Shown here: positions 191-31,227 of the stretch, in pieces
Position numbering within the stretch: the stretch's first letter is position 1
Layout of the letters: every line of letters starts with the position of its first letter
Origin: Candidatus Eiseniibacteriota bacterium
GTDB taxonomy: Bacteria > Eisenbacteria > RBG-16-71-46 > JABDJR01
Assembly (NCBI GenBank): GCA_963762255.1
Contig: CAVXKA010000002.1
Coordinates: 640,001-704,000 of the forward strand
DNA length: 64,000 nucleotides
Direction: 5' to 3'
Notes under the pieces: generated by a model
What the model was told of the DNA's origin: nothing
Seen by the model: the letters and a program-made list of their open reading frames with translations, nothing else
The model's database searches: none
Position numbers and translations under genes: made by a program

Positions 191-826
191 ATGAATCGAG
201 CTCTTCGTGCCGTCACGCTTCTTTGTGCCTGCGCGATCCTCTCCGGCGCTGCCATGGCCTGCGGCGTCCAGGAGCCATCCCAAGAGGCCGCCAGGCAGCC
301 TGCCTCCCCCACCCACACGGCGTCCTCGGACACGGCGGGGGCCCCGGCGACCAGCTTCTACGACTTGCGTACGCGCACTCTGGAAGGGGAACCCGCCGAT
401 CTTGGGGCCTATCGAGGCCGGGTGGTGCTGGCTGTCAACGTCGCCAGCAAGTGCGGCCTGACCCCGCAGTACGAGAGCCTTGAGGCGCTGCATCGGGAGC
501 TCGCCCCCCGCGGCTTCAGCGTGCTTGGCTTTCCCAGCAATGACTTCCTGAATCAGGAACCCGGCAGCCCCGAGGAGATCCGCGAGTTCTGCTCCACCCG
601 CTTCGACGTGACCTTTCCCCTGTTCGAGAAGATGAAGGTCAAGGGGGACGACAAGTCGGAGGTCTACCGCTTCCTGACCGCGCGGCACCCCGAGCCGGAC
701 TGGAATTTCACCAAGTACCTGATCGATGGCGAGGGGCACGTGGTTCAGCGCTTTTCGCCCCGTACCACGGTGGAGGACGCCGAGGTGCGCCGGCAGATTC
801 TGGCGCTCTTGGACCAGACCAAGTGA
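191..826 (+). CDS. Cys-type glutathione peroxidase, probable lipoprotein
   Basis: VNVASKCGLTPQY, LGFPSNDF..QEPG and WNFTKYL motifs; GAGGTG RBS before ATG 191; TG-N-TACGAT extended -10 at 154-162. Confidence 0.92.
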   Translation: MNRALRAVTLLCACAILSGAAMACGVQEPSQEAARQPASPTHTASSDTAGAPATSFYDLRTRTLEGEPADLGAYRGRVVLAVNVASKCGLTPQYESLEALHRELAPRGFSVLGFPSNDFLNQEPGSPEEIREFCSTRFDVTFPLFEKMKVKGDDKSEVYRFLTARHPEPDWNFTKYLIDGEGHVVQRFSPRTTVEDAEVRRQILALLDQTK

Positions 827-15246: not shown

Positions 15247-15825
15247 TCAGTTCGCGGGCACGTAATCCGTCAGATCGTAGGAGACGCCGGAATGCTCCAG
15301 AATCCTGATCGCGCCGACTTCGGGAGCTACAACGTAGGTCATGTCTAGAACGGCGTCGTCTGATATGTCAAAGAAAAACGTGTAGCAGTCGGTGTATGTG
15401 CCCGCAGGAACGGTCACCACATCCGTCTTGCTGATGAGGGTGACGGTGGGAGCCGGCACATCCGTACCTACTGCGTATTCCCAGGACTCTCCGGCGTCCG
15501 CAGTGAAGTCAAAGAGTACTGACTCAAGCGCGCTTGTCTCGGATTTCCGAACGAGTAGACGGCCGCTGTCCATGCGGACCAGTGAGTGCGGGAACAAGGT
15601 TCCGCTGATTTGCGTGTATTCCTTTCCGTCCAGCGTCACCCGTGCAGCAACTGAATCCGATCGCCCCGCGGTGTACTCCCACAGCGTTCCAATGCCCAAC
15701 GGATACATAACATCCAACGAATTAGGTTGGGTCACTTTCTTGTTACAGCCCACAAACATGAAACATGTGAGGAGAATAATGAGAAGCGGTCTCCCGCCAC
15801 TTCCTAATGGCCTCGATGCGATCAT
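15247..15825 (-). CDS. Hypothetical lipoprotein
   Basis: AAGGAGAG RBS; lipobox FVGC; YPL.IG..WEY and VTVPAGTY.DC motifs; visibly lower GC. Confidence 0.7.
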   Translation of the reverse strand: MIASRPLGSGGRPLLIILLTCFMFVGCNKKVTQPNSLDVMYPLGIGTLWEYTAGRSDSVAARVTLDGKEYTQISGTLFPHSLVRMDSGRLLVRKSETSALESVLFDFTADAGESWEYAVGTDVPAPTVTLISKTDVVTVPAGTYTDCYTFFFDISDDAVLDMTYVVAPEVGAIRILEHSGVSYDLTDYVPAN

Positions 15826-15975
15826 CTGGCTCTCCTTTGGGTATGCGTGTATTGAGTCCGTGGCGTCCCCGAGCTTTGTCGCTCCGATATCCATTCTAAG
15901 TCCGCGGGTCAGCATATTCCAGAGTAGGGCGCAGACGGGGTCGGGACGGACGACTCGGGGGATTAAGGCCGCCGA

Positions 15976-16053
15976 TCAGATGCCGAGATCAACCCCGTCG
16001 TCGCGGACTCGTTGGACCACGTCGAAGATCTCCCTGACGAGAATCGGGGCGAG
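15976..16053 (-). pseudogene. Remnant of a LivF-like branched-chain amino acid ABC ATPase
   Basis: Reads LAPILVREIFDVVQRVRDDG, resembling the post-Walker-B segment (GLAPILVREIF..I..I...G); no flanking homology. Confidence 0.45.
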
Positions 16054-16169
16054 GCACTGTCCCCCGCGCCCCGTCACGTTGTTGTAGATTATGGGCTCGT
16101 TGTGACGGAGCCGACGGCCTCCGGGGTTCTTGTCCGACTCGCCCCGAGCCACTCAGATGGAGGAAGACG

Positions 16170-19100
16170 ATGCCGGGATTCACCCCAGGACGACGTTTCC
16201 AGCCGGCCTACCTAAGCTTCATACGCCGGCCGGCTGCTGAGCGCCTGCTCGCGCTCTTGGAACGTCAGACCAAGGGCACGCTGTTCGGCTGCCGCATGTG
16301 CGGCAACTGCCTGCTGCAAGAGACCGCTTTCATCTGCCCGATGGAGTGTCCCAAGGGGCTGCGCAACGGACCTTGCGGCGGCTCCACTCCGGAGGGTTGC
16401 TATGTGGATCCCGGGCGCCCCTGCATCTGGCACCACATCTTCGAGCGCGCCGACCGGATGGGGCGCACCGACCGCCTGATGGAGGTCCTGCCGCCGCTCG
16501 ACTGGGCGCGGGTGGGCCGGGAGACGTGGGGCGAGGTCATCGACGAGGTTCGCCGCCGTGGATTCGGCAAGGCCTTGGCCAGCTTCCTCGCGGGCCGCGA
16601 GCAGCGAGCCGCCTTCTGGGATCCCCTATTTCTCGGTATCCGCCAGCCCGACTGGTGGCAGGGGGACGACGCACCGCACCCTGCGCTGGCACACGCGCCG
16701 GTGTCGCGACTCGAGGAGAAACTGGCGGCCGGCCGCTTAGTCGTCACCTCGGAGGTGGCCCCCCCACTCTCGGTGGCGCCCGAGGAGCTGACCGGCACCC
16801 TGCGCCTCCTGCGTGACTGGATCGACGCGGCCAACTTCACCGACAACCCGTCGGCAACCCCCAGAATGTCTTCGCTGGCTTGCTCGGTGCTGGCCCTGGC
16901 CCAGGGTGTGGAACCGGTGATGCAGGTGGCTGCGCGTGATCGCACCCGTATGGGACTGCAGGCTGAGATTCTGGGCGCTGCGGCGTTGGGCATCCGCAAC
17001 GTTCTCTGCCTGACCGGGGATCATCCCGTCCTGGGTCCCTCGCCGCAAGGACGCATGGACATCTGGGACATCGACTCCATCCAGATGCTCTGGATTCTGC
17101 GCCGCATGCGCGATGCGCGGCAGTACATGGACGGCCGGGCGATCAAGAATCCGCCCGCGCTGTTCCTCGGCGCCGCGGCCTCGCCATTTTCATCCACGCC
17201 GCGGACACAGGCCCTGCGGGAACTCAAGAAGGTTCACGCCGGCGCTCAGTTCTTCCAGAGCAACCTCATCTACGATGTCGAGGGTTTCGAGAGCTACGCG
17301 GAAGCGCTGGACAAGGCGGGTGTGCTCGGAAAGACGCCGTTCCTGGCCGGGATCACGCCAGTGCGCAGCGCGCGCGCGGCGCACGCCATGTCGAAGGTGC
17401 CCGGCGTGAAGATCCCACCGGCCCTCATCGAGCGCCTCGAGAAATCGCGCAACCCCCAGGAGGAGGGGGTGCAGATCGCCCTCGAGATCATCGACCGGGT
17501 CAAGCGCCTGCCGGGGATCAGCGGTTTCCACATCATGGCCGTGGGCTGGGAACTGATCGTGCCGCGGCTCGTCCGCGAATCGGGATTGAAGGAGCCGCCG
17601 GCGCCGACGGGCGACCCCGGCATCTCGATCCGCACACCCACCCGGGCGCCGCGTGCGTCGCGGCCCGCCGAGCGCCCGCCGGCGGAGCACACCGACCGCC
17701 GCTACCTGGACGCGTTGACCTCAAAGGTCCTGGTCTTCGACGGCGCCATGGGCACCGCCATCCAGATGTGCAACCTGACGGCTGCCGACTTCGGCGGCGA
17801 AAAGACGGCCGGCTGCAACGACTACCTGGTCCTCCAGAAGCCCGACGTCATCGAGGGGATCCACGCCTCCTACCTGGAGGCCGGCTGCGACGTGATCGAG
17901 ACCTGCACCTTCCGCGCGAACCGGCAAACCATGGCGGAGTACGGGCTCGAGAACCGCATTCCGGAGATGAACCGCGCGGCGGCGGTGCTGGCGCGCCGAG
18001 CGGCCGACTCCTTCTCTACCGCGGAGCGACCCCGCTTTGTGGCCGGCTCCATCGGCCCCACCGGCATGCTCCCCTCTTCCTCGGATCCCGAGCTGTCAGC
18101 CATCGCGTTCGAGGAGCTGGCCGACATCTTCTCCGAGCAGGCCGAGGCCCTGGTGGAAGGGGGCTGCGATCTCCTCCTCATCGAAACCTCCCAGGACATG
18201 TTGGAGGTCAAGGCCGCCATCATGGGTGTGCAGGACGCTTTCGCCCGGACCGGCAAGAGAATCCCGCTTCAGGTCCAGGTCACCTTGGACGCCACGGGCC
18301 GGATGCTCCTCGGCACCGATGCGGCCGCTGTGCTTGCCACGCTGGAGCGAATGCCGGTGGACGTGCTGGGCATCAACTGCTCCACCGGGCCCGAGCACAT
18401 GCGCGCACCGCTGGCCTATCTGGGCGAGAACTCCTCGAAGCCCGTCTCCTGCCTGCCCAACGCGGGTCTGCCTGAGAACGTCGATGGAGAGGCGGTCTAT
18501 CCGCTCCAGCCGGACGGCTTCGCCGAGGAGATGGCGGACTATGTGGAGCGCTTTGGACTGAACGCGGTGGGCGGCTGCTGCGGCACAACCCCGGAACACA
18601 TCCGCATGCTCGTCGAGCGACTGCACGGCCGAGAGCCCCGGCCTCGGACGGCCCGCCCGCTCTCACTCGTGTCATCAGGAATCACCGTGGCCGACCTGGT
18701 CCAGAACCCGCGTCCGATGCTCATCGGCGAGCGGTTGAACGCCCAGGGGAGCAAGAAGATGAAGGAGCTGCTGCTGGCCGAGGACTACGGCGGCATCGCA
18801 GCCGTGGCCCGGGAGCAGATCGACGGCGGCGCGCACACGCTGGACATCTGTGTGGCGATGACCGAGCGGCGGGACGAGAGCTACCTCATGTCCCGGGTGG
18901 TCCGGACGCTGAGCCAGACGGTGGAGGCGCCGCTGGTCATCGACACCACCGAAGCCGAAGTGCTAGAAGCCGCGCTGCAAGCGGCCCCCGGTCGCATCAT
19001 CGTCAACGCGGTGAACATGGAGAACGGCCGCCATCGTGTGGACACCATGCTGCCGCTGATCCGCGACTACGGCGCCGCCACCATCGCGCTGACCATCGAC

Positions 19101-21197
19101 GAGATCGGGATGGCCCGCACTGCCGAGCGCAAGCTGGAGGTGGCCCGGAAGATCCACGACATCGCCACGAAGGAGTACGGGATTCTGCCCGATGCGCTCA
19201 TCTTCGACGCCCTGACATTCACGCTGGCCACCGGCGACCCTGAGAGCGCCAACACGGCCGTGGAGACGCTGGAGGGAATCCGGCGGATCAAGGCCGCACT
19301 TCCCGGCGTGATGACATCCCTCGGGGTGTCGAACGTCTCCTATGGATTCAAGCCGGCGGCGCGCCGGGTGCTGAACAGCGTCTTCCTCTACCACGCGGTG
19401 GAGGCCGGGCTGGACATGGCCATCGTGAATCCCAAGCAGGTGACGCCGTACGCCGAGATCCCGGCCGCAGAGCGCGAGCTCGCCGAGGACCTTCTTCTCA
19501 ACCGGCGGCCGGATGCCACGGCCCGGTTCATCAGTTTCTACGAGGGGGCCAAGGCCAGGCAGGTGGAAACGGTCGATCCCACCGCCGGGCTGCCGCCGGC
19601 GGAGCGGTTGCACGCGCGCATCCTGCACCGCAAGCCGGAAGGGCTCGAAGCCGACGTGGACGCCCTTGTCGTGGCCGGCGTGCGCGAGAAGACCGGGGTG
19701 ACCGATTTCACGGCGGAGCCCGGCTATCACTTTCCCAATGCCGACACCTCGGCGGTGGCGGTGCAGGTTCTGAACCAGGTGATGCTGCCGGCTATGAAGG
19801 AGGTCGGCGACAAGTTCGGCTCCGGCGAGTTGATCCTCCCCTTCGTGCTCCAGTCGGCCGAAGTGATGAAGAAGGCGGTGGGACAGCTCGAGAAGTATCT
19901 GGAGAGGGCCGAGGGGGTCAGCAAGGGGAAGGTCGTCCTGGCCACGGTCTACGGTGACGTCCACGACATCGGCAAGAACCTGATCAAGACGATTCTGGCC
20001 AACAATGGCTACAGCGTGTACGACCTGGGCAAGCAAGTGCCGGTGAACGTGATCGTAGACCAGGCGGTGGAGCTCAAGGCCGACGCCATCGGGCTGTCGG
20101 CGCTGCTCGTGTCCACCTCGCGGCAGATGCCGCTCGTGGTCCGCGAGCTGGACCGGCGCGGATTGTCCATGCCGGTGCTGGTGGGAGGTGCGGCCATCAA
20201 CCGCCGCTTCGGCCGGGAGATCGCGCACGTGGAGGAGGATCGCCCCTACGCCGGCGGCGTGCTCTACTGCCGCGATGCGTTCGAGGGGCTGGAGACGATC
20301 GATCGGCTGGCCGATCCAGCCGCGCGCAAAGAGCTGCTGGCAGGCGAGCGTCGAGCGGCACAGGAGCAGCGGAAGCCGGCGGCGGCTGGGGGGGCCTCCG
20401 CGCAGGAAGACTCCGCCCGGTCGTTGGTGACGCCTCGACCCGAGGACGTCCCCACGCCGCCGTTCTGGGGGTCCCGCACGGTGGCCGAGCTGCCGATCGA
20501 GGAGGTCTTCTCCCGTCTCGACGAGAACAGGCTCTTCAAGATGTCCTGGGGGGCAAAGAGCAAGCTCGATGCGGAGTCGGAAGGACTGCGCGGGGAATTC
20601 GGCGCGCGCTTGGTGCGGATGAAACGCGCGGCGATCGAGGAACGGTGGTTTGCGCCTCAAGCGGTCTACGGCTACTTCCCTGCCCAAGCTGACGGCAACG
20701 ACCTGCTCATCCTCGACCCCGCCGACCATCACCAGGTGCTGGCCCGCTTCTCGTTCCCGCGGCAGAAGGGACCGGAACGTTTCTGCCTGGCGGACTACTT
20801 CCTGCCGGTCGGCTCGGCGAGGGCTGACGTTGCGGCGCTGCAGGTGGTGACCGTCGGCTCCGCGGCCACTGCGCGGTTCGACGCAATGGATGGCAAGGAC
20901 GAGTACAGCGAGGCCTATTACTTCCACGGGCTGGCCGTGCAGACCGCTCAGGCGGCCACGGACCTGCTATTCGAACGGATCCGGAAGGAGCTGGGCCTGC
21001 CGGATGGGCGCGGACGATCGTACGCGTGGGGCTTCGGTGCGTTGCCCGACGTGGAAGAGCATCGCAAGGTATTCCGCCTGCTCCCCGCGGAGCGGGACCT
21101 GGGGATGACCCTGACCTCGGCGGGGCAGATGGTGCCCGAGCAGTCCACGGCGATGCTGGTCGTGCATCACCCGGAGGCGCGGTACTTCAACGTGTAG
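16170..21197 (+). CDS. metH: MetV-MetF-MetH fusion (methylene-THF reductase plus cobalamin-dependent methionine synthase)
   Basis: CRMCGNC..CPMECPKGLRNGPCGG..C..CIW (MetV); EVAPP, NFTDNP, RDRTR, TGDH (MetF); DGAMGT, GINC, GGCCGT, IGERLN, GDVHDIGKN, PEQST (MetH); GGAGG RBS. Confidence 0.92.
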   Translation: MPGFTPGRRFQPAYLSFIRRPAAERLLALLERQTKGTLFGCRMCGNCLLQETAFICPMECPKGLRNGPCGGSTPEGCYVDPGRPCIWHHIFERADRMGRTDRLMEVLPPLDWARVGRETWGEVIDEVRRRGFGKALASFLAGREQRAAFWDPLFLGIRQPDWWQGDDAPHPALAHAPVSRLEEKLAAGRLVVTSEVAPPLSVAPEELTGTLRLLRDWIDAANFTDNPSATPRMSSLACSVLALAQGVEPVMQVAARDRTRMGLQAEILGAAALGIRNVLCLTGDHPVLGPSPQGRMDIWDIDSIQMLWILRRMRDARQYMDGRAIKNPPALFLGAAASPFSSTPRTQALRELKKVHAGAQFFQSNLIYDVEGFESYAEALDKAGVLGKTPFLAGITPVRSARAAHAMSKVPGVKIPPALIERLEKSRNPQEEGVQIALEIIDRVKRLPGISGFHIMAVGWELIVPRLVRESGLKEPPAPTGDPGISIRTPTRAPRASRPAERPPAEHTDRRYLDALTSKVLVFDGAMGTAIQMCNLTAADFGGEKTAGCNDYLVLQKPDVIEGIHASYLEAGCDVIETCTFRANRQTMAEYGLENRIPEMNRAAAVLARRAADSFSTAERPRFVAGSIGPTGMLPSSSDPELSAIAFEELADIFSEQAEALVEGGCDLLLIETSQDMLEVKAAIMGVQDAFARTGKRIPLQVQVTLDATGRMLLGTDAAAVLATLERMPVDVLGINCSTGPEHMRAPLAYLGENSSKPVSCLPNAGLPENVDGEAVYPLQPDGFAEEMADYVERFGLNAVGGCCGTTPEHIRMLVERLHGREPRPRTARPLSLVSSGITVADLVQNPRPMLIGERLNAQGSKKMKELLLAEDYGGIAAVAREQIDGGAHTLDICVAMTERRDESYLMSRVVRTLSQTVEAPLVIDTTEAEVLEAALQAAPGRIIVNAVNMENGRHRVDTMLPLIRDYGAATIALTIDEIGMARTAERKLEVARKIHDIATKEYGILPDALIFDALTFTLATGDPESANTAVETLEGIRRIKAALPGVMTSLGVSNVSYGFKPAARRVLNSVFLYHAVEAGLDMAIVNPKQVTPYAEIPAAERELAEDLLLNRRPDATARFISFYEGAKARQVETVDPTAGLPPAERLHARILHRKPEGLEADVDALVVAGVREKTGVTDFTAEPGYHFPNADTSAVAVQVLNQVMLPAMKEVGDKFGSGELILPFVLQSAEVMKKAVGQLEKYLERAEGVSKGKVVLATVYGDVHDIGKNLIKTILANNGYSVYDLGKQVPVNVIVDQAVELKADAIGLSALLVSTSRQMPLVVRELDRRGLSMPVLVGGAAINRRFGREIAHVEEDRPYAGGVLYCRDAFEGLETIDRLADPAARKELLAGERRAAQEQRKPAAAGGASAQEDSARSLVTPRPEDVPTPPFWGSRTVAELPIEEVFSRLDENRLFKMSWGAKSKLDAESEGLRGEFGARLVRMKRAAIEERWFAPQAVYGYFPAQADGNDLLILDPADHHQVLARFSFPRQKGPERFCLADYFLPVGSARADVAALQVVTVGSAATARFDAMDGKDEYSEAYYFHGLAVQTAQAATDLLFERIRKELGLPDGRGRSYAWGFGALPDVEEHRKVFRLLPAERDLGMTLTSAGQMVPEQSTAMLVVHHPEARYFNV

Positions 21198-21528
21198 GTT
21201 TGCCACCCCGGTAGAATCGAATCTGCACCCGCTCCATAGTGGCGAGCCCTTCGTTGACGGCCTCATCCACTAGCGGCAGGAATGCTTCGATCTTCTCGAG
21301 CGTGTCCACGATCTCCACGATGATCGGAAGATCCACCGAGAGTCTCAGGATCTTGGCTGTGTGAAGGCGGCTGTGGGCCCCGAAGCCCTCGGTGCCGCGC
21401 AGCACCGTCGCGCCGGCGAGACCGTGCTCGCGAGCCTTGAGCACCAGCCACTGATAGAGCGGTTTCCCATCGTGCTTGTCGGACTCTCCGATGAAGATGC
21501 GCAGCAGGTGCCCCTCTTCAGGAAGCAT
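21187..21528 (-). CDS. DUF190 (PII-like) protein
   Basis: LLRIFIGESD, GLAGATVLRG.EGFG, LS.DLPIIVEIVD. Confidence 0.92.
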   Translation of the reverse strand: MLPEEGHLLRIFIGESDKHDGKPLYQWLVLKAREHGLAGATVLRGTEGFGAHSRLHTAKILRLSVDLPIIVEIVDTLEKIEAFLPLVDEAVNEGLATMERVQIRFYRGGKPTR

Positions 21529-21532
21529 CGTC

Positions 21533-21919
21533 TCACCTCCCCGGCAGGAGTTGCGTCAACGCGGCCCCCGCCCACACGGCGCCGATCCCAAGAACCACCT
21601 GGAGTACGACCGAACTGGCGAGCGCCAGCATCTGACCGTCTCGAATCAGTTGGAAGGATTCATACCCGAACGTGGAGAACGTGCTGAACCCTCCCAGGAA
21701 ACCGATGAACAAGAATACCCGGGTTCCCCCACCGATGACACCCCGCGCCTCGGACAGGGTCGCCAGGAACCCGATCGCAAGACACGCTGCGACGTTGATG
21801 ACGAGCGTCTCGTATGGGAAACTGGCGCCCTGTTTCACTCGGTTGATGAGCCCACCGACGCCGAATCGCAGCATCGCGCCGAGGAACCCGCCGAGTCCGG
21901 CCAAGAGATAGAGTTCCAT
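21533..21919 (-). CDS. crcB: Fluoride channel FluC/CrcB
   Basis: GGFLGAMLR, FPYETL.IN, GFLGGFSTFSTF; GGAGG RBS. Confidence 0.92.
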   Translation of the reverse strand: MELYLLAGLGGFLGAMLRFGVGGLINRVKQGASFPYETLVINVAACLAIGFLATLSEARGVIGGGTRVFLFIGFLGGFSTFSTFGYESFQLIRDGQMLALASSVVLQVVLGIGAVWAGAALTQLLPGR

Positions 21920-22005
21920 CCAGATCACCCTCCGAAACCGGCGTCGCCCGGCCGTTGCAGTCTCGGGTTGCGGGTCCGGTGCTTCGTCCGAGTCAACGAT
22001 CATCT

Positions 22006-22143
22006 TCACGATACGGACCCCGTTCCTTGAATAACTAGCGGGTTCAGCAGGGTCGACTTGCCGCGCTTGGATTGGCCGACGAGGGCAACATGGAAGAGCC
22101 CCGCAGTGAGGCGGTCGGCCAACGATCGGGCATCCTCTGCGAG
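22006..22143 (-). pseudogene. N-terminal remnant of a bacterial dynamin-like GTPase
   Basis: Reads LAEDARSLADRLTAGLFHVALVGQSKRGKSTLLNPL then stops; matches the dynamin G1 region (V.VVGQFKRGKSTLLNAL). Confidence 0.65.
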
Positions 22144-31138: not shown

Positions 31139-31227
31139 TGGTGCCGGGGGCCGGAATCGAACCGGCACGGACGTTGCCGCCCTGCGGATTTTAAGTCCGC
31201 TGCGTCTCCCAGTTTCGCCACCCCGGC
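31139..31227 (-). tRNA. tRNA-Leu(UAA)
   Basis: GCCGGGG acceptor stem, anticodon arm GCGGA-CT-TAA-AA-TCCGC, long variable arm, GGTTCGATTCC T-arm, encoded CCA. Confidence 0.96.

Follow-up and report, generated by a model that had tools for sequence, protein, structure and literature searches.

One DNA locus raises the question of whether two enzymes that catalyse consecutive reactions, methylene-THF reductase (MTHFR) and methionine synthase (MetH), can be carried together with the iron-sulfur protein MetV on a single chain, and what such a protein would do for its host. The locus lies in a window of 64,000 nucleotides, the whole stretch of DNA that we analysed, from a Candidatus Eiseniibacteriota bacterium. 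We find that the three-part architecture is a genuine single polypeptide, and the joined MetV-MetF-MetH form is apparently previously undescribed.

The open reading frame (16170..21197, plus strand, as are all features below) starts with ATG, is uninterrupted by internal stops in translation and encodes 1675 amino acids plus a stop codon. A Shine-Dalgarno sequence, GGAGGA (16159..16164), can be read 5 nt upstream of the ATG. The chain begins with a MetV domain (PF12225/DUF5981/MTHFR_C; aa 21–112, 16230..16505, Pfam E 2e-27), which a partly helical connector (aa 113–180, 16506..16709; identity to the query 0.61 over 41 proteins) joins to the MetF TIM barrel (MTHFR, PF02219; aa 181–468, 16710..17573, E 1.6e-28). 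After a Pro/Ala/Arg-rich inter-enzyme linker (aa 475–508, 17592..17693), Pfam places five MetH modules in order: the homocysteine-binding domain (S-methyl_trans; aa 521–817, 17730..18620, E 4e-85), the methyl-THF domain (Pterin_bind; aa 853–1087, 18726..19430, E 2.7e-41), the cap (B12-binding_2, aa 1194–1241) and cobalamin Rossmann domain (B12-binding, aa 1253–1342), which together span 19749..20195, and the AdoMet-dependent reactivation domain (Met_synt_B12, PF02965; aa 1484–1675, 20619..21194, E 6.3e-26). The domain boundaries of the original prediction agree with these to within a few codons, and the reading frame and the Pfam matches bear out its view of one polypeptide in which MetV, rich in Cys, is followed by the MetF barrel, a flexible linker and all of MetH.

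The same prediction had argued against two genes joined by error, on the grounds that the linker offers no in-frame ATG or GTG and no convincing pair of ribosome-binding site and start. A sequence scan confirmed this: no ATG or GTG is in frame between 17587 and 17705, and the 20 nt upstream of the in-frame TTG codons at 17586 and 17715 hold no Shine-Dalgarno-like sequence. The proposed search by domain architecture turned up another 40 clusters (clustered at 90% identity) that carry this set of seven Pfam domains at 71–93% identity, drawn from four sources (JGI, ENA, NCBI and Logan); the close homologues are fused, not split. The linker measures 34–83 residues in the 33 of 41 fused proteins in which it can be measured. 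In the alignment of all 41, its identity is 0.34 as against 0.72–0.88 for the domains, and this difference (34% versus 72–88%) indicates that both enzymes are under constraint.

Metagenome contigs supplied four more fused loci, three of them complete. Among the contigs compared (soil runs X1–X3 and a bioreactor RNA library, X18), one of 2445 nt from X2 covers 17376–18100 with 34 substitutions and no gaps. Another, of 3485 nt from X18, covers 17294–18097 and carries insertions of +2 and +1 nt, 11 nt apart, which sum in frame and so keep the reading frame; the X18 library, the sole hint of a transcript of the fusion, may contain DNA. Independent contigs therefore cross the linker in frame, with no disrupting indel or stop, and the clusters, the contigs and the lack of a start or Shine-Dalgarno sequence all support the argument against an erroneous join. 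Among 1.84 billion cluster representatives, a single one extends across the junction. Candidates for natural split forms within fused cluster 4 (P0472, P0473, P0474 and P0479) were rejected, as their out-of-frame-looking tails fall at different positions and P0473 continues through the linker. A candidate second fusion family was also rejected: P0313 (570 aa, MTHFR followed by the start of a homocysteine-binding domain) is a probable frameshift join, its domains are flanked by Arg-rich low-complexity sequence, and its longer MTHFR-bearing relatives are single-member ENA entries.

The MetV-MetF half has the features of an iron-sulfur MTHFR. Eight MetV cysteines (Cys 41, 44, 47, 56, 60, 69, 77 and 85) are kept in 98–100% of fused proteins (alignment, n = 41). 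In an AlphaFold2 model, helices of the connector lie at aa 120–158 (the connector also occurs in single-chain MetV-MetF proteins of Chloroflexota), and the MetF module is an MTHFR barrel (pTM 0.84) that Foldseek matched to the Thermus and E. coli MTHFRs with TM scores of 0.80–0.84 on the target. The barrel averages 81% identity among fused proteins. E195 and D284, whose aligned counterparts in Thermus MTHFR are Glu18 and the Asp of GDPP, are invariant across fused proteins and free relatives. Where E. coli has a Gln that contacts folate and NADH, the Thermus alignment has Asn, and the substrate may therefore be contacted differently than in classical MetF.

The nearest biochemical parallel is type II MetVF, described in an excerpt of PMC8760232 for the acetogens Clostridium ljungdahlii, Thermoanaerobacter kivui, Eubacterium callanderi and C. 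formicoaceticum. According to that excerpt, two [4Fe-4S] clusters are predicted in MetV, and the type II enzyme, which has FMN besides these, takes electrons from reduced ferredoxin and not from NAD(P)H; the physiological donor is disputed. For anaerobic acetogens, this agrees with the earlier view of MetV/MetF as the Fe-S-linked reductase of anaerobes. The fusion resembles type II MetVF in its Cys-rich Fe-S domain and MetF barrel and in the absence beside it of the RnfC2 (type III) or HdrABC-MvhD (type IV) partner genes. It differs in that MetV and MetF are not separate, adjacent genes but one chain that runs on into MetH, and in that its host has oxidases and lacks acetyl-CoA synthase, which makes the setting anabolic rather than acetogenic. 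By analogy, the fusion probably shares the cofactors and low-potential donor of type II MetVF.

The second half is a complete MetH. It scores 1048.4 bits against the NCBIfam metH equivalog TIGR02082 over aa 517–1675, above the cut-off of 1010.85, and falls below that of the E. coli-type model NF007024 (782.7 versus 1497). The module begins at the native MetH N-terminus, with an RRYLDAL motif, and is colinear with full-length Thermus MetH 8ssc (812.7 bits, query 3–1159 to chain 13–1149), the alignment of the reactivation domain extending through the C-terminus; the five modules and catalytic motifs are shared with 8ssc and 8g3h alike. Cys 737, 803 and 804, which we take to be the zinc ligands of the homocysteine site, are invariant in all 38 aligned fused proteins, as are D1263-x-H1265-x-x-G1268, S1310-x-L1312 and G1339-G1340, presumably the DxHxxG/SxL/GG cobalamin-binding motif. 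The pterin-binding domain is 0.88 identical across fused proteins. Free MetH proteins with Anaerolineales labels (P0123–P0197) are 59–65% identical to this half at 100% coverage, but lack the 510-residue N-terminal extension with its second enzyme. Identity to the split MetH of the host itself is only 43%.

The original prediction had contrasted the architecture with YitJ-type fusions, and the contrast was upheld. YitJ-type proteins (NF006396) also join an MTHFR barrel to a homocysteine-binding domain, but they place the homocysteine-binding domain first, whereas the fusion has MTHFR first, and they lack the MetV, folate, B12 and reactivation domains. The fusion scores 421.8 against NF006396, below the cut-off of 453 and in two separate stretches, and its MTHFR is 33% identical to that of the host's YitJ. 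MetF-(TPR)-CdhD fusions (P0043–P0054, P0220 and P0221; Dissulfurirhabdus and Dissulfuribacterales labels) have a MetF of the same clade (43–48% identity) and likewise tether a producer of methyl-THF to a corrinoid system that consumes it. Their partner is the delta subunit of acetyl-CoA synthase, not MetH, and the chain has no MetV.

In phylogenetic trees (FastTree, with midpoint or paralogue roots), the fused sequences formed one clade with 100% support both for MetV-MetF (42 of 119 rows) and for MetH (39 of 180 rows). Both clades are nested among Anaerolineae-labelled Chloroflexota genes, and in the MetV-MetF tree the fused clade has as its sister group the free single-chain proteins of that phylum. 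These free proteins (~480–520 aa; for example, that of Leptolinea tardivitalis, L076) are 56–68% identical to the fusion over residues 1–474..505, but their chain stops just past the barrel and none of the 78 loci has metH in its fetched flanks. Conversely, none of 74 free metH loci has MetV-MetF beside it; in G206 and G207, the gene after metH is of the YitJ type. No unfused adjacent-gene intermediate was found among the 78 free metVF and 74 metH loci examined; for P0130, which is sister to the fused MetH sequences, the best locus covered was 70% identical. The tree topologies indicate a single origin, in which one event would have joined a single-chain MetV-MetF to an Anaerolineae-type MetH. 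The GC3 of the fusion (0.87) lies inside the range of nine neighbouring genes (0.65–0.91) and therefore gives no signal of foreign composition. Two flanking genes are each present in 4 of 10 genomes of the order (G000 included), at 38–60% identity and on unrelated contigs or positions; these relatives are too distant to be informative.

A limited set of bacteria from soils and sediments has conserved the fusion, which is patchily distributed (sequencing-run shares below 0.2 were left out of habitat claims). It is carried by 3 of 206 genomes of the window's phylum, at least three carriers lie outside Chloroflexota, and it is spread unevenly over lineages with different labels. In the window, it is flanked by genes for an aquaporin, an SDR, a DUF190 protein, CrcB and an MFS transporter, and across six loci no gene, RnfC2-/Hdr-like or other, is conserved beside it. 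Apart from one tRNA, the whole window has no RNA family at gathering score; no riboswitch or leader was detected at E ≤ 1 in 15700–16300, nor at the host's split metH and yitJ loci. A second MetH is present in all four carriers, and a YitJ-type MTHFR in three of the four; in the host, these are the additional split MetH and a 622-aa YitJ-type gene elsewhere in the genome. Since carriers keep these other enzymes, the fusion is dispensable for methionine synthesis as such, and it is best read as an accessory second system beside conventional MetH and MTHFR. In the fourth carrier, G211, no MTHFR match other than the fusion was found, a weak observation given that the completeness of G211 is not stated.

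The host genome, which is 93.6% complete, has six POR_N matches, representing 2-oxoacid:ferredoxin oxidoreductases, and four haem-copper oxidase (COX1) matches. It has no CdhC match for acetyl-CoA synthase, and its only CdhD match is sub-threshold, on the fusion's own pterin domain. By this gene content, the host is not an acetogen. Because it has haem-copper oxidases, an oxygen-sensitive Fe-S reductase may work there only part-time.

We consider it likely, from the domains and conserved residues, that the protein is an accessory trifunctional enzyme that would convert methylene-THF and homocysteine to methionine, probably driven by ferredoxin. The domains, the conserved residues, the fusion itself, its single origin, its distribution and its redundancy are observed; the enzymatic activities, the electron donor, any advantage of closeness or channelling and the circumstances of use are inferred. 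The eight MetV cysteines, enough for two [4Fe-4S] clusters, would accept electrons, most likely from reduced ferredoxin, and hand them on to the MetF flavin, where 5,10-methylene-THF would be reduced to 5-methyl-THF. A disordered tether of 34–83 residues would connect these parts with the complete, cobalamin-dependent MetH, where the methyl group would pass via cob(I)alamin to zinc-activated homocysteine, with the AdoMet-dependent repair domain retained. Now sporadic in a few soil and sediment lineages, the fusion would serve as a self-contained accessory gene beside MetH and YitJ-type MTHFR, plausibly at low oxygen, when reduced ferredoxin is present and Fe-S clusters are safe.

A serious alternative, to which we assign somewhat less than an even chance, is that both enzymes are active and tethered without kinetic coupling, the fusion being kept because one gene is a handy, self-sufficient package for horizontal transfer and secures 1:1 stoichiometry. 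It differs from the accessory trifunctional enzyme solely in whether methyl-THF is channelled to the MetH folate domain, as the original prediction suggested it could be. The long, variable and poorly conserved linker suits it, as do the lack of conserved neighbours, the scatter across differently labelled lineages and the Chloroflexota-like character of both halves even though at least three carriers are not Chloroflexota. We count no evidence against it, and tethering alone raises local concentration. A docking prediction of MetV-MetF (aa 1–480) on the folate domain (aa 845–1100), run without controls, scored 0.00, 0.38 and 0.00 and favours neither reading.

MetV-MetF might also act on cobalamin, to whose cob(II)alamin form MetV could supply electrons in the original prediction. 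An extension of the trifunctional enzyme that we regard as unlikely is a self-sufficient synthase, in which MetV/MetF would make methyl-THF and in addition deliver in cis the electron that repairs cob(II)alamin, replacing flavodoxin. If true, one ferredoxin-fed polypeptide would need only methylene-THF, homocysteine and catalytic AdoMet. Very unlikely, in our estimate, is the stronger version in which MetV-MetF is not mainly an MTHFR and serves as dedicated electron delivery for cob(II)alamin reactivation, as flavodoxin or methionine synthase reductase does elsewhere. No flavodoxin (PF00258) was found in the 93.6%-complete genome, the reactivation domain is still present, and Fe-S clusters and flavin, as the excerpt of PMC8760232 ascribes to type II MetVF, are a suitable type of cofactor. 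However, the invariance of the MTHFR residues and the conservation of the barrel exceed what an electron relay needs, the host's split MetH requires reactivation without such a domain, and the Thermus control, also without a flavodoxin match, has a working MetH.

Operation in reverse, by which a methyl group from a methyl-corrinoid or methionine would pass to methyl-THF and on to methylene-THF, seems very improbable. An AcsE-like pterin-binding gene lies upstream in 33 of the 78 Chloroflexota metVF loci, which places the closest free MetV-MetF in a methyl-branch context compatible with either direction; against this, the MetH half exceeds its equivalog cut-off, has all five modules and retains the Cys triad of the homocysteine-zinc site, the proteins most closely related to it are ordinary MetH enzymes of full length, and the host lacks acetyl-CoA synthase. 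An artefact or pseudogene, in which sequencing or assembly error merged adjacent genes, has a negligible chance of being correct: such joins do occur, as P0313 and its ENA relatives resemble frameshift-joined yitJ-metH neighbours and fused cluster 4 includes members cut short by frameshifts, but the 40 further clusters keep frame despite linkers that differ in sequence and length, independent contigs agree, a separate MetH would have no start, and the truncations are scattered, with P0473 passing the linker intact.

In databases, the fused proteins (1,650–1,830 aa) are labelled simply "methionine synthase," a label that hides their MTHFR from pathway reconstructions, including the only MTHFR match of G211. 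Because the host is non-acetogenic and oxidase-bearing, with no bioenergetic bookkeeping to be balanced, the question of the MetVF electron donor can be isolated here, and the single chain is a tractable system for methyl-THF channelling, for MetH reactivation without flavodoxin and for the reason that a cell keeps two methionine routes. That the two enzymes occur naturally joined gives strong genomic support to the view that an Fe-S reductase of the MetVF type supplies methionine synthesis in a non-acetogenic setting.

The fusion is encoded by a single ATG-started open reading frame of 1675 codons (window 16170–21197, plus strand), with a Shine-Dalgarno sequence (GGAGGA) at 16159–16164 ahead of the ATG. 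Pfam recognized seven domains in order, all on the plus strand: DUF5981/MTHFR_C (MetV, aa 21–112), MTHFR (MetF, aa 181–468), S-methyl_trans (aa 521–817), Pterin_bind (aa 853–1087), B12-binding_2 (aa 1194–1241), B12-binding (aa 1253–1342), and Met_synt_B12 (aa 1484–1675). In NCBIfam, residues 517–1675 passed the equivalog cut-off of the metH model TIGR02082 (1048.4 vs. 1010.85 bits), and the whole protein missed that of the YitJ-type model NF006396 (421.8 vs. 453). The original prediction, which described one frame containing MetV, MetF, a linker, and a full MetH, was thus accurate, as was its statement that the linker offers no internal start: positions 17587–17705 contain neither ATG nor GTG in frame, and the two TTG codons that are in frame, at 17586 and 17715, both lack an SD-like sequence ahead of them. 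The protein does not belong to the class of YitJ-type fusions, in which an Hcy S-methyltransferase domain is followed by MTHFR, and it differs from the canonical MetVF enzyme, which has two subunits.

In a homologue search scored on residues 1–560, 216 of 8000 scored candidates (921–2932 aa) matched at E≤0.001. Among the 120 matches listed, the same seven-domain order was found in at least 40 further clusters at 90% identity (P0002–P0041), whose proteins are 1630–1830 aa long and 71–93% identical to the fusion. These clusters derive from JGI, ENA, NCBI, and Logan, and two named members are annotated as ‘methionine synthase [Vicinamibacterales bacterium]’. When 41 fused proteins, query included, were aligned, mean identity to the query was high in every domain (MetV 0.84, MetF 0.81, Hcy 0.78, pterin 0.88, cap 0.82, B12 0.88, reactivation 0.72) and just 0.34 in the linker (aa 475–508). 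Linker length varied from 34 to 83 residues in the 33 of 41 proteins in which our pattern found both edges; the remaining eight are pattern misses. Because the reading frame is kept across a linker so variable in both sequence and length, the fusion is not an error.

Sequencing runs argue the same way, contrary to an indel or stop in the linker. A 2445-nt contig from soil run X2 spans 17376–18100 with 34 substitutions and no gaps, and a 3485-nt contig from X18, an RNA library, spans 17294–18097 with insertions of +2 and +1 located 11 nt apart, so that the frame is restored. Every run contained less than half of the words sampled; both contigs are therefore from relatives rather than from the same strain. 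The X18 contig is a hint of transcription only, since the library may contain DNA. We also considered as natural splits four proteins of reduced length that belong to a single fused cluster (P0472, P0473, P0474, and P0479). They terminate in Arg/Gly-rich tails at four different, scattered positions, and the frame of P0473 goes through the linker; we read them as frameshift truncations.

The architecture is rare among its relatives. HMMER comparison of residues 1–640 with 1.84 billion 50%-identity representatives gave 13,870 matches at E≤0.001, and among the best 150 of these the junction was spanned only by P0026 (1681 aa). The other proteins in the best 150 were all ≤1038 aa: single-chain MetV-MetF (∼450–500 aa), MetF (∼300 aa), YitJ-type proteins (∼610–640 aa), and MetF-CdhD fusions (845–1038 aa). 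A colinear MTHFR-to-Hcy match, P0313, was examined as a second fusion and rejected; it resembles two adjacent genes joined by a frameshift, and those of its relatives that are longer and carry MTHFR are ENA entries with one member each. A further protein, P0247 (709 aa), has the odd architecture of MetV and the first MTHFR half followed by FG-GAP repeats, and is possibly a chimeric gene call. Of the genomes in the collection, one of 10 from the window’s order has MetV, as do three of 206 from its class, which there equals the whole phylum. In those three genomes, including G010 (= G212; locus L020, labelled Candidatus Eisenbacteria), it always lies within open frames of 1718–1843 aa. Metagenome contigs contributed three further complete fused genes (L092, L093, and L094) and one truncated copy (L110).

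Species-representative genomes contained 456 confirmed MetV-MetF relatives, the best 80 of which comprised two fused (L017 and L020) and 78 free (unfused) forms. We set the 456 beside a passage of PMC5736913; most of the free ones kept carry Anaerolineae or Chloroflexota labels. The 78 free frames are single-chain, ∼476–570 aa (two are longer, 748 and 755 aa), and 56–68% identical to the query, and nearly all, Leptolinea tardivitalis included, have one of these two labels. Two Anaerolineae-like loci, L043 and L048, bear other-phylum labels (Bacteroidota and Syntrophothermus) and lie on short contigs of a single project (4.8 and 3.9 kb); they are sisters within the Chloroflexota group of the MetV-MetF tree, so mis-binning is possible. 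For the MetH module, the nearest unfused relatives are MetH proteins of 1166–1220 aa, 59–65% identical at 100% coverage and, where named, labelled Anaerolineales. The host’s own MetH is just 43% identical to the fused module, which begins where free MetH has its own N-terminus (RRYLDAL motif). An insertion before the cap relative to Thermus MetH is also found in the nearest free MetH and is thus not an adaptation specific to the fusion.

In a FastTree phylogeny of MetV-MetF (119 rows; P0009 and L087 dropped; midpoint root), a branch with an SH-like support of 100% set the 42 fused rows apart, with 27 Anaerolineae-type rows next to them. In the MetH tree (FastTree, 180 rows, with P0009, P0041, P0122, and proteins outside 1100–1300 aa dropped), the 39 fused rows were monophyletic (100%) and sister to the free MetH P0130, within the Anaerolineales-type radiation. 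The root of this tree falls on the long branch of the host’s split MetH, and neither tree has a proper outgroup. The two phylogenies are consistent with a single origin from Anaerolineae-type genes, a direction they do not prove.

In free form, metVF and metH are not neighbours: metH was found in the fetched flanks of none of 78 free metVF loci, and MetV-MetF beside none of 74 free metH loci. Thirty-nine of these 74 Anaerolineales-type metH loci (metagenome contigs, L090–L167) have an MTHFR gene downstream on the same strand, 28–34% identical and, where the frame is visible, YitJ-type of ∼630 aa. On contigs G206:C36 and G207:C145, metH is likewise followed by a YitJ-type gene, so metH-yitJ looks like a recurrent pair. 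Upstream of metVF, on the same strand, 33 of the 78 loci (within L022–L086) have a pterin-binding gene 26–31% identical to the MetH folate domain; this AcsE-like gene before single-chain metVF suggests a methyl-branch cluster in Anaerolineae.

In the host, the fusion gene stands alone. Upstream, on the opposite strand, are genes for a 222-aa protein without family, an aquaporin, and an SDR, and downstream are DUF190, CrcB, and an MFS transporter; no flanking gene was common to six fused loci. GC3 of the fusion (0.87) is inside the range of neighbouring genes. No Rfam element was found upstream of the fusion. The DUF190/CrcB pair (21187–22009, minus strand) follows immediately. At gathering score, the 64-kb window showed no fluoride riboswitch, and its sole Rfam match is a tRNA gene (31142–31227, minus strand, 58.1 bits).

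The host genome (G000; 4.14 Mb, 93.6% complete) has a second, split MetH ∼52 kb before the window start (contig C2:584320–587719, minus strand, L004/L006), consisting of a 952-aa frame (metH model positions 3–865, 999 bits) and an adjacent 313-aa frame with the reactivation domain (positions 909–1181). The second MTHFR of this genome is part of a 622-aa YitJ-type protein (contig C3, L002:484–2352, plus strand); the MTHFR in it is 33% identical to that of the fusion, and the locus showed no riboswitch at gathering score. MetE was not found in this genome. Another MetH occurs in all four distinct carriers (G000, G010, G011, and G211) and a YitJ-type MTHFR in three; in G211 the fusion is the sole MTHFR match. 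The host has six POR_N and four COX1 matches, no CdhC, and a single, sub-threshold CdhD match that lies on the fusion’s own pterin domain. Thus, it is an oxidase-bearing non-acetogen able to make reduced ferredoxin.

Over its whole length, the MetH module can be aligned to the solved full-length Thermus MetH (8ssc, 812.7 bits). C737/C803/C804, D1263-x-H1265-x-x-G1268, S1310-x-L1312, and G1339-G1340, which we take to be functional MetH motifs, are kept in 38 of 38 aligned fused proteins. The N-terminal module, predicted from a 45-row alignment, gave a mean pLDDT of 79.7 and a pTM of 0.84. Confidence was low in the Cys-rich stretches 40–59 and 63–68, as would be expected of a model from which the clusters are absent. 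Foldseek returned MTHFR barrels only (e.g., Thermus 8eac and E. coli 1zp4; target TM 0.80–0.84), and no PDB sequence covers residues 1–180, so we found no solved relative of MetV. E195 and D284, invariant in fused and free MetV-MetF forms, are aligned to two residues of Thermus MTHFR, Glu18 and the aspartate of GDPP. In the E. coli enzyme these correspond to Glu28 and Asp120, mutant structures of which were among the Foldseek matches.

According to PMC8760232, type II MetVF enzymes have a MetV with two predicted [4Fe-4S] clusters and a MetF carrying FMN. In vitro they use reduced ferredoxin but not NAD(P)H, and which donor serves them physiologically is debated. From these properties, electrons would flow from ferredoxin through the MetV clusters and the MetF flavin to methylene-THF, and the methyl group from methyl-THF through the folate domain and cob(I)alamin to homocysteine. 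The tether may also permit channelling of methyl-THF to the folate domain, as the original prediction proposed. Because the host genome has no flavodoxin (PF00258) match, a putative second role of the redox module in repairing cob(II)alamin is attractive.

Each part of the fusion is from a known family; the novelty is the combination. Public records name the protein simply ‘methionine synthase’, and we found no description of a MetVF/MetH fusion among the papers listed for the open full-text literature. A set of proteins labelled Dissulfurirhabdus or Dissulfuribacterales (P0043–P0054, P0220, and P0221; 845–1057 aa) joins MetF to a CdhD (acetyl-CoA synthase delta) domain, often via TPR repeats, and likewise tethers MTHFR to a corrinoid system that consumes methyl-THF. 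Although enzymes of successive steps are known to become fused in evolution, this case should be noteworthy and of experimental use to workers on one-carbon metabolism.
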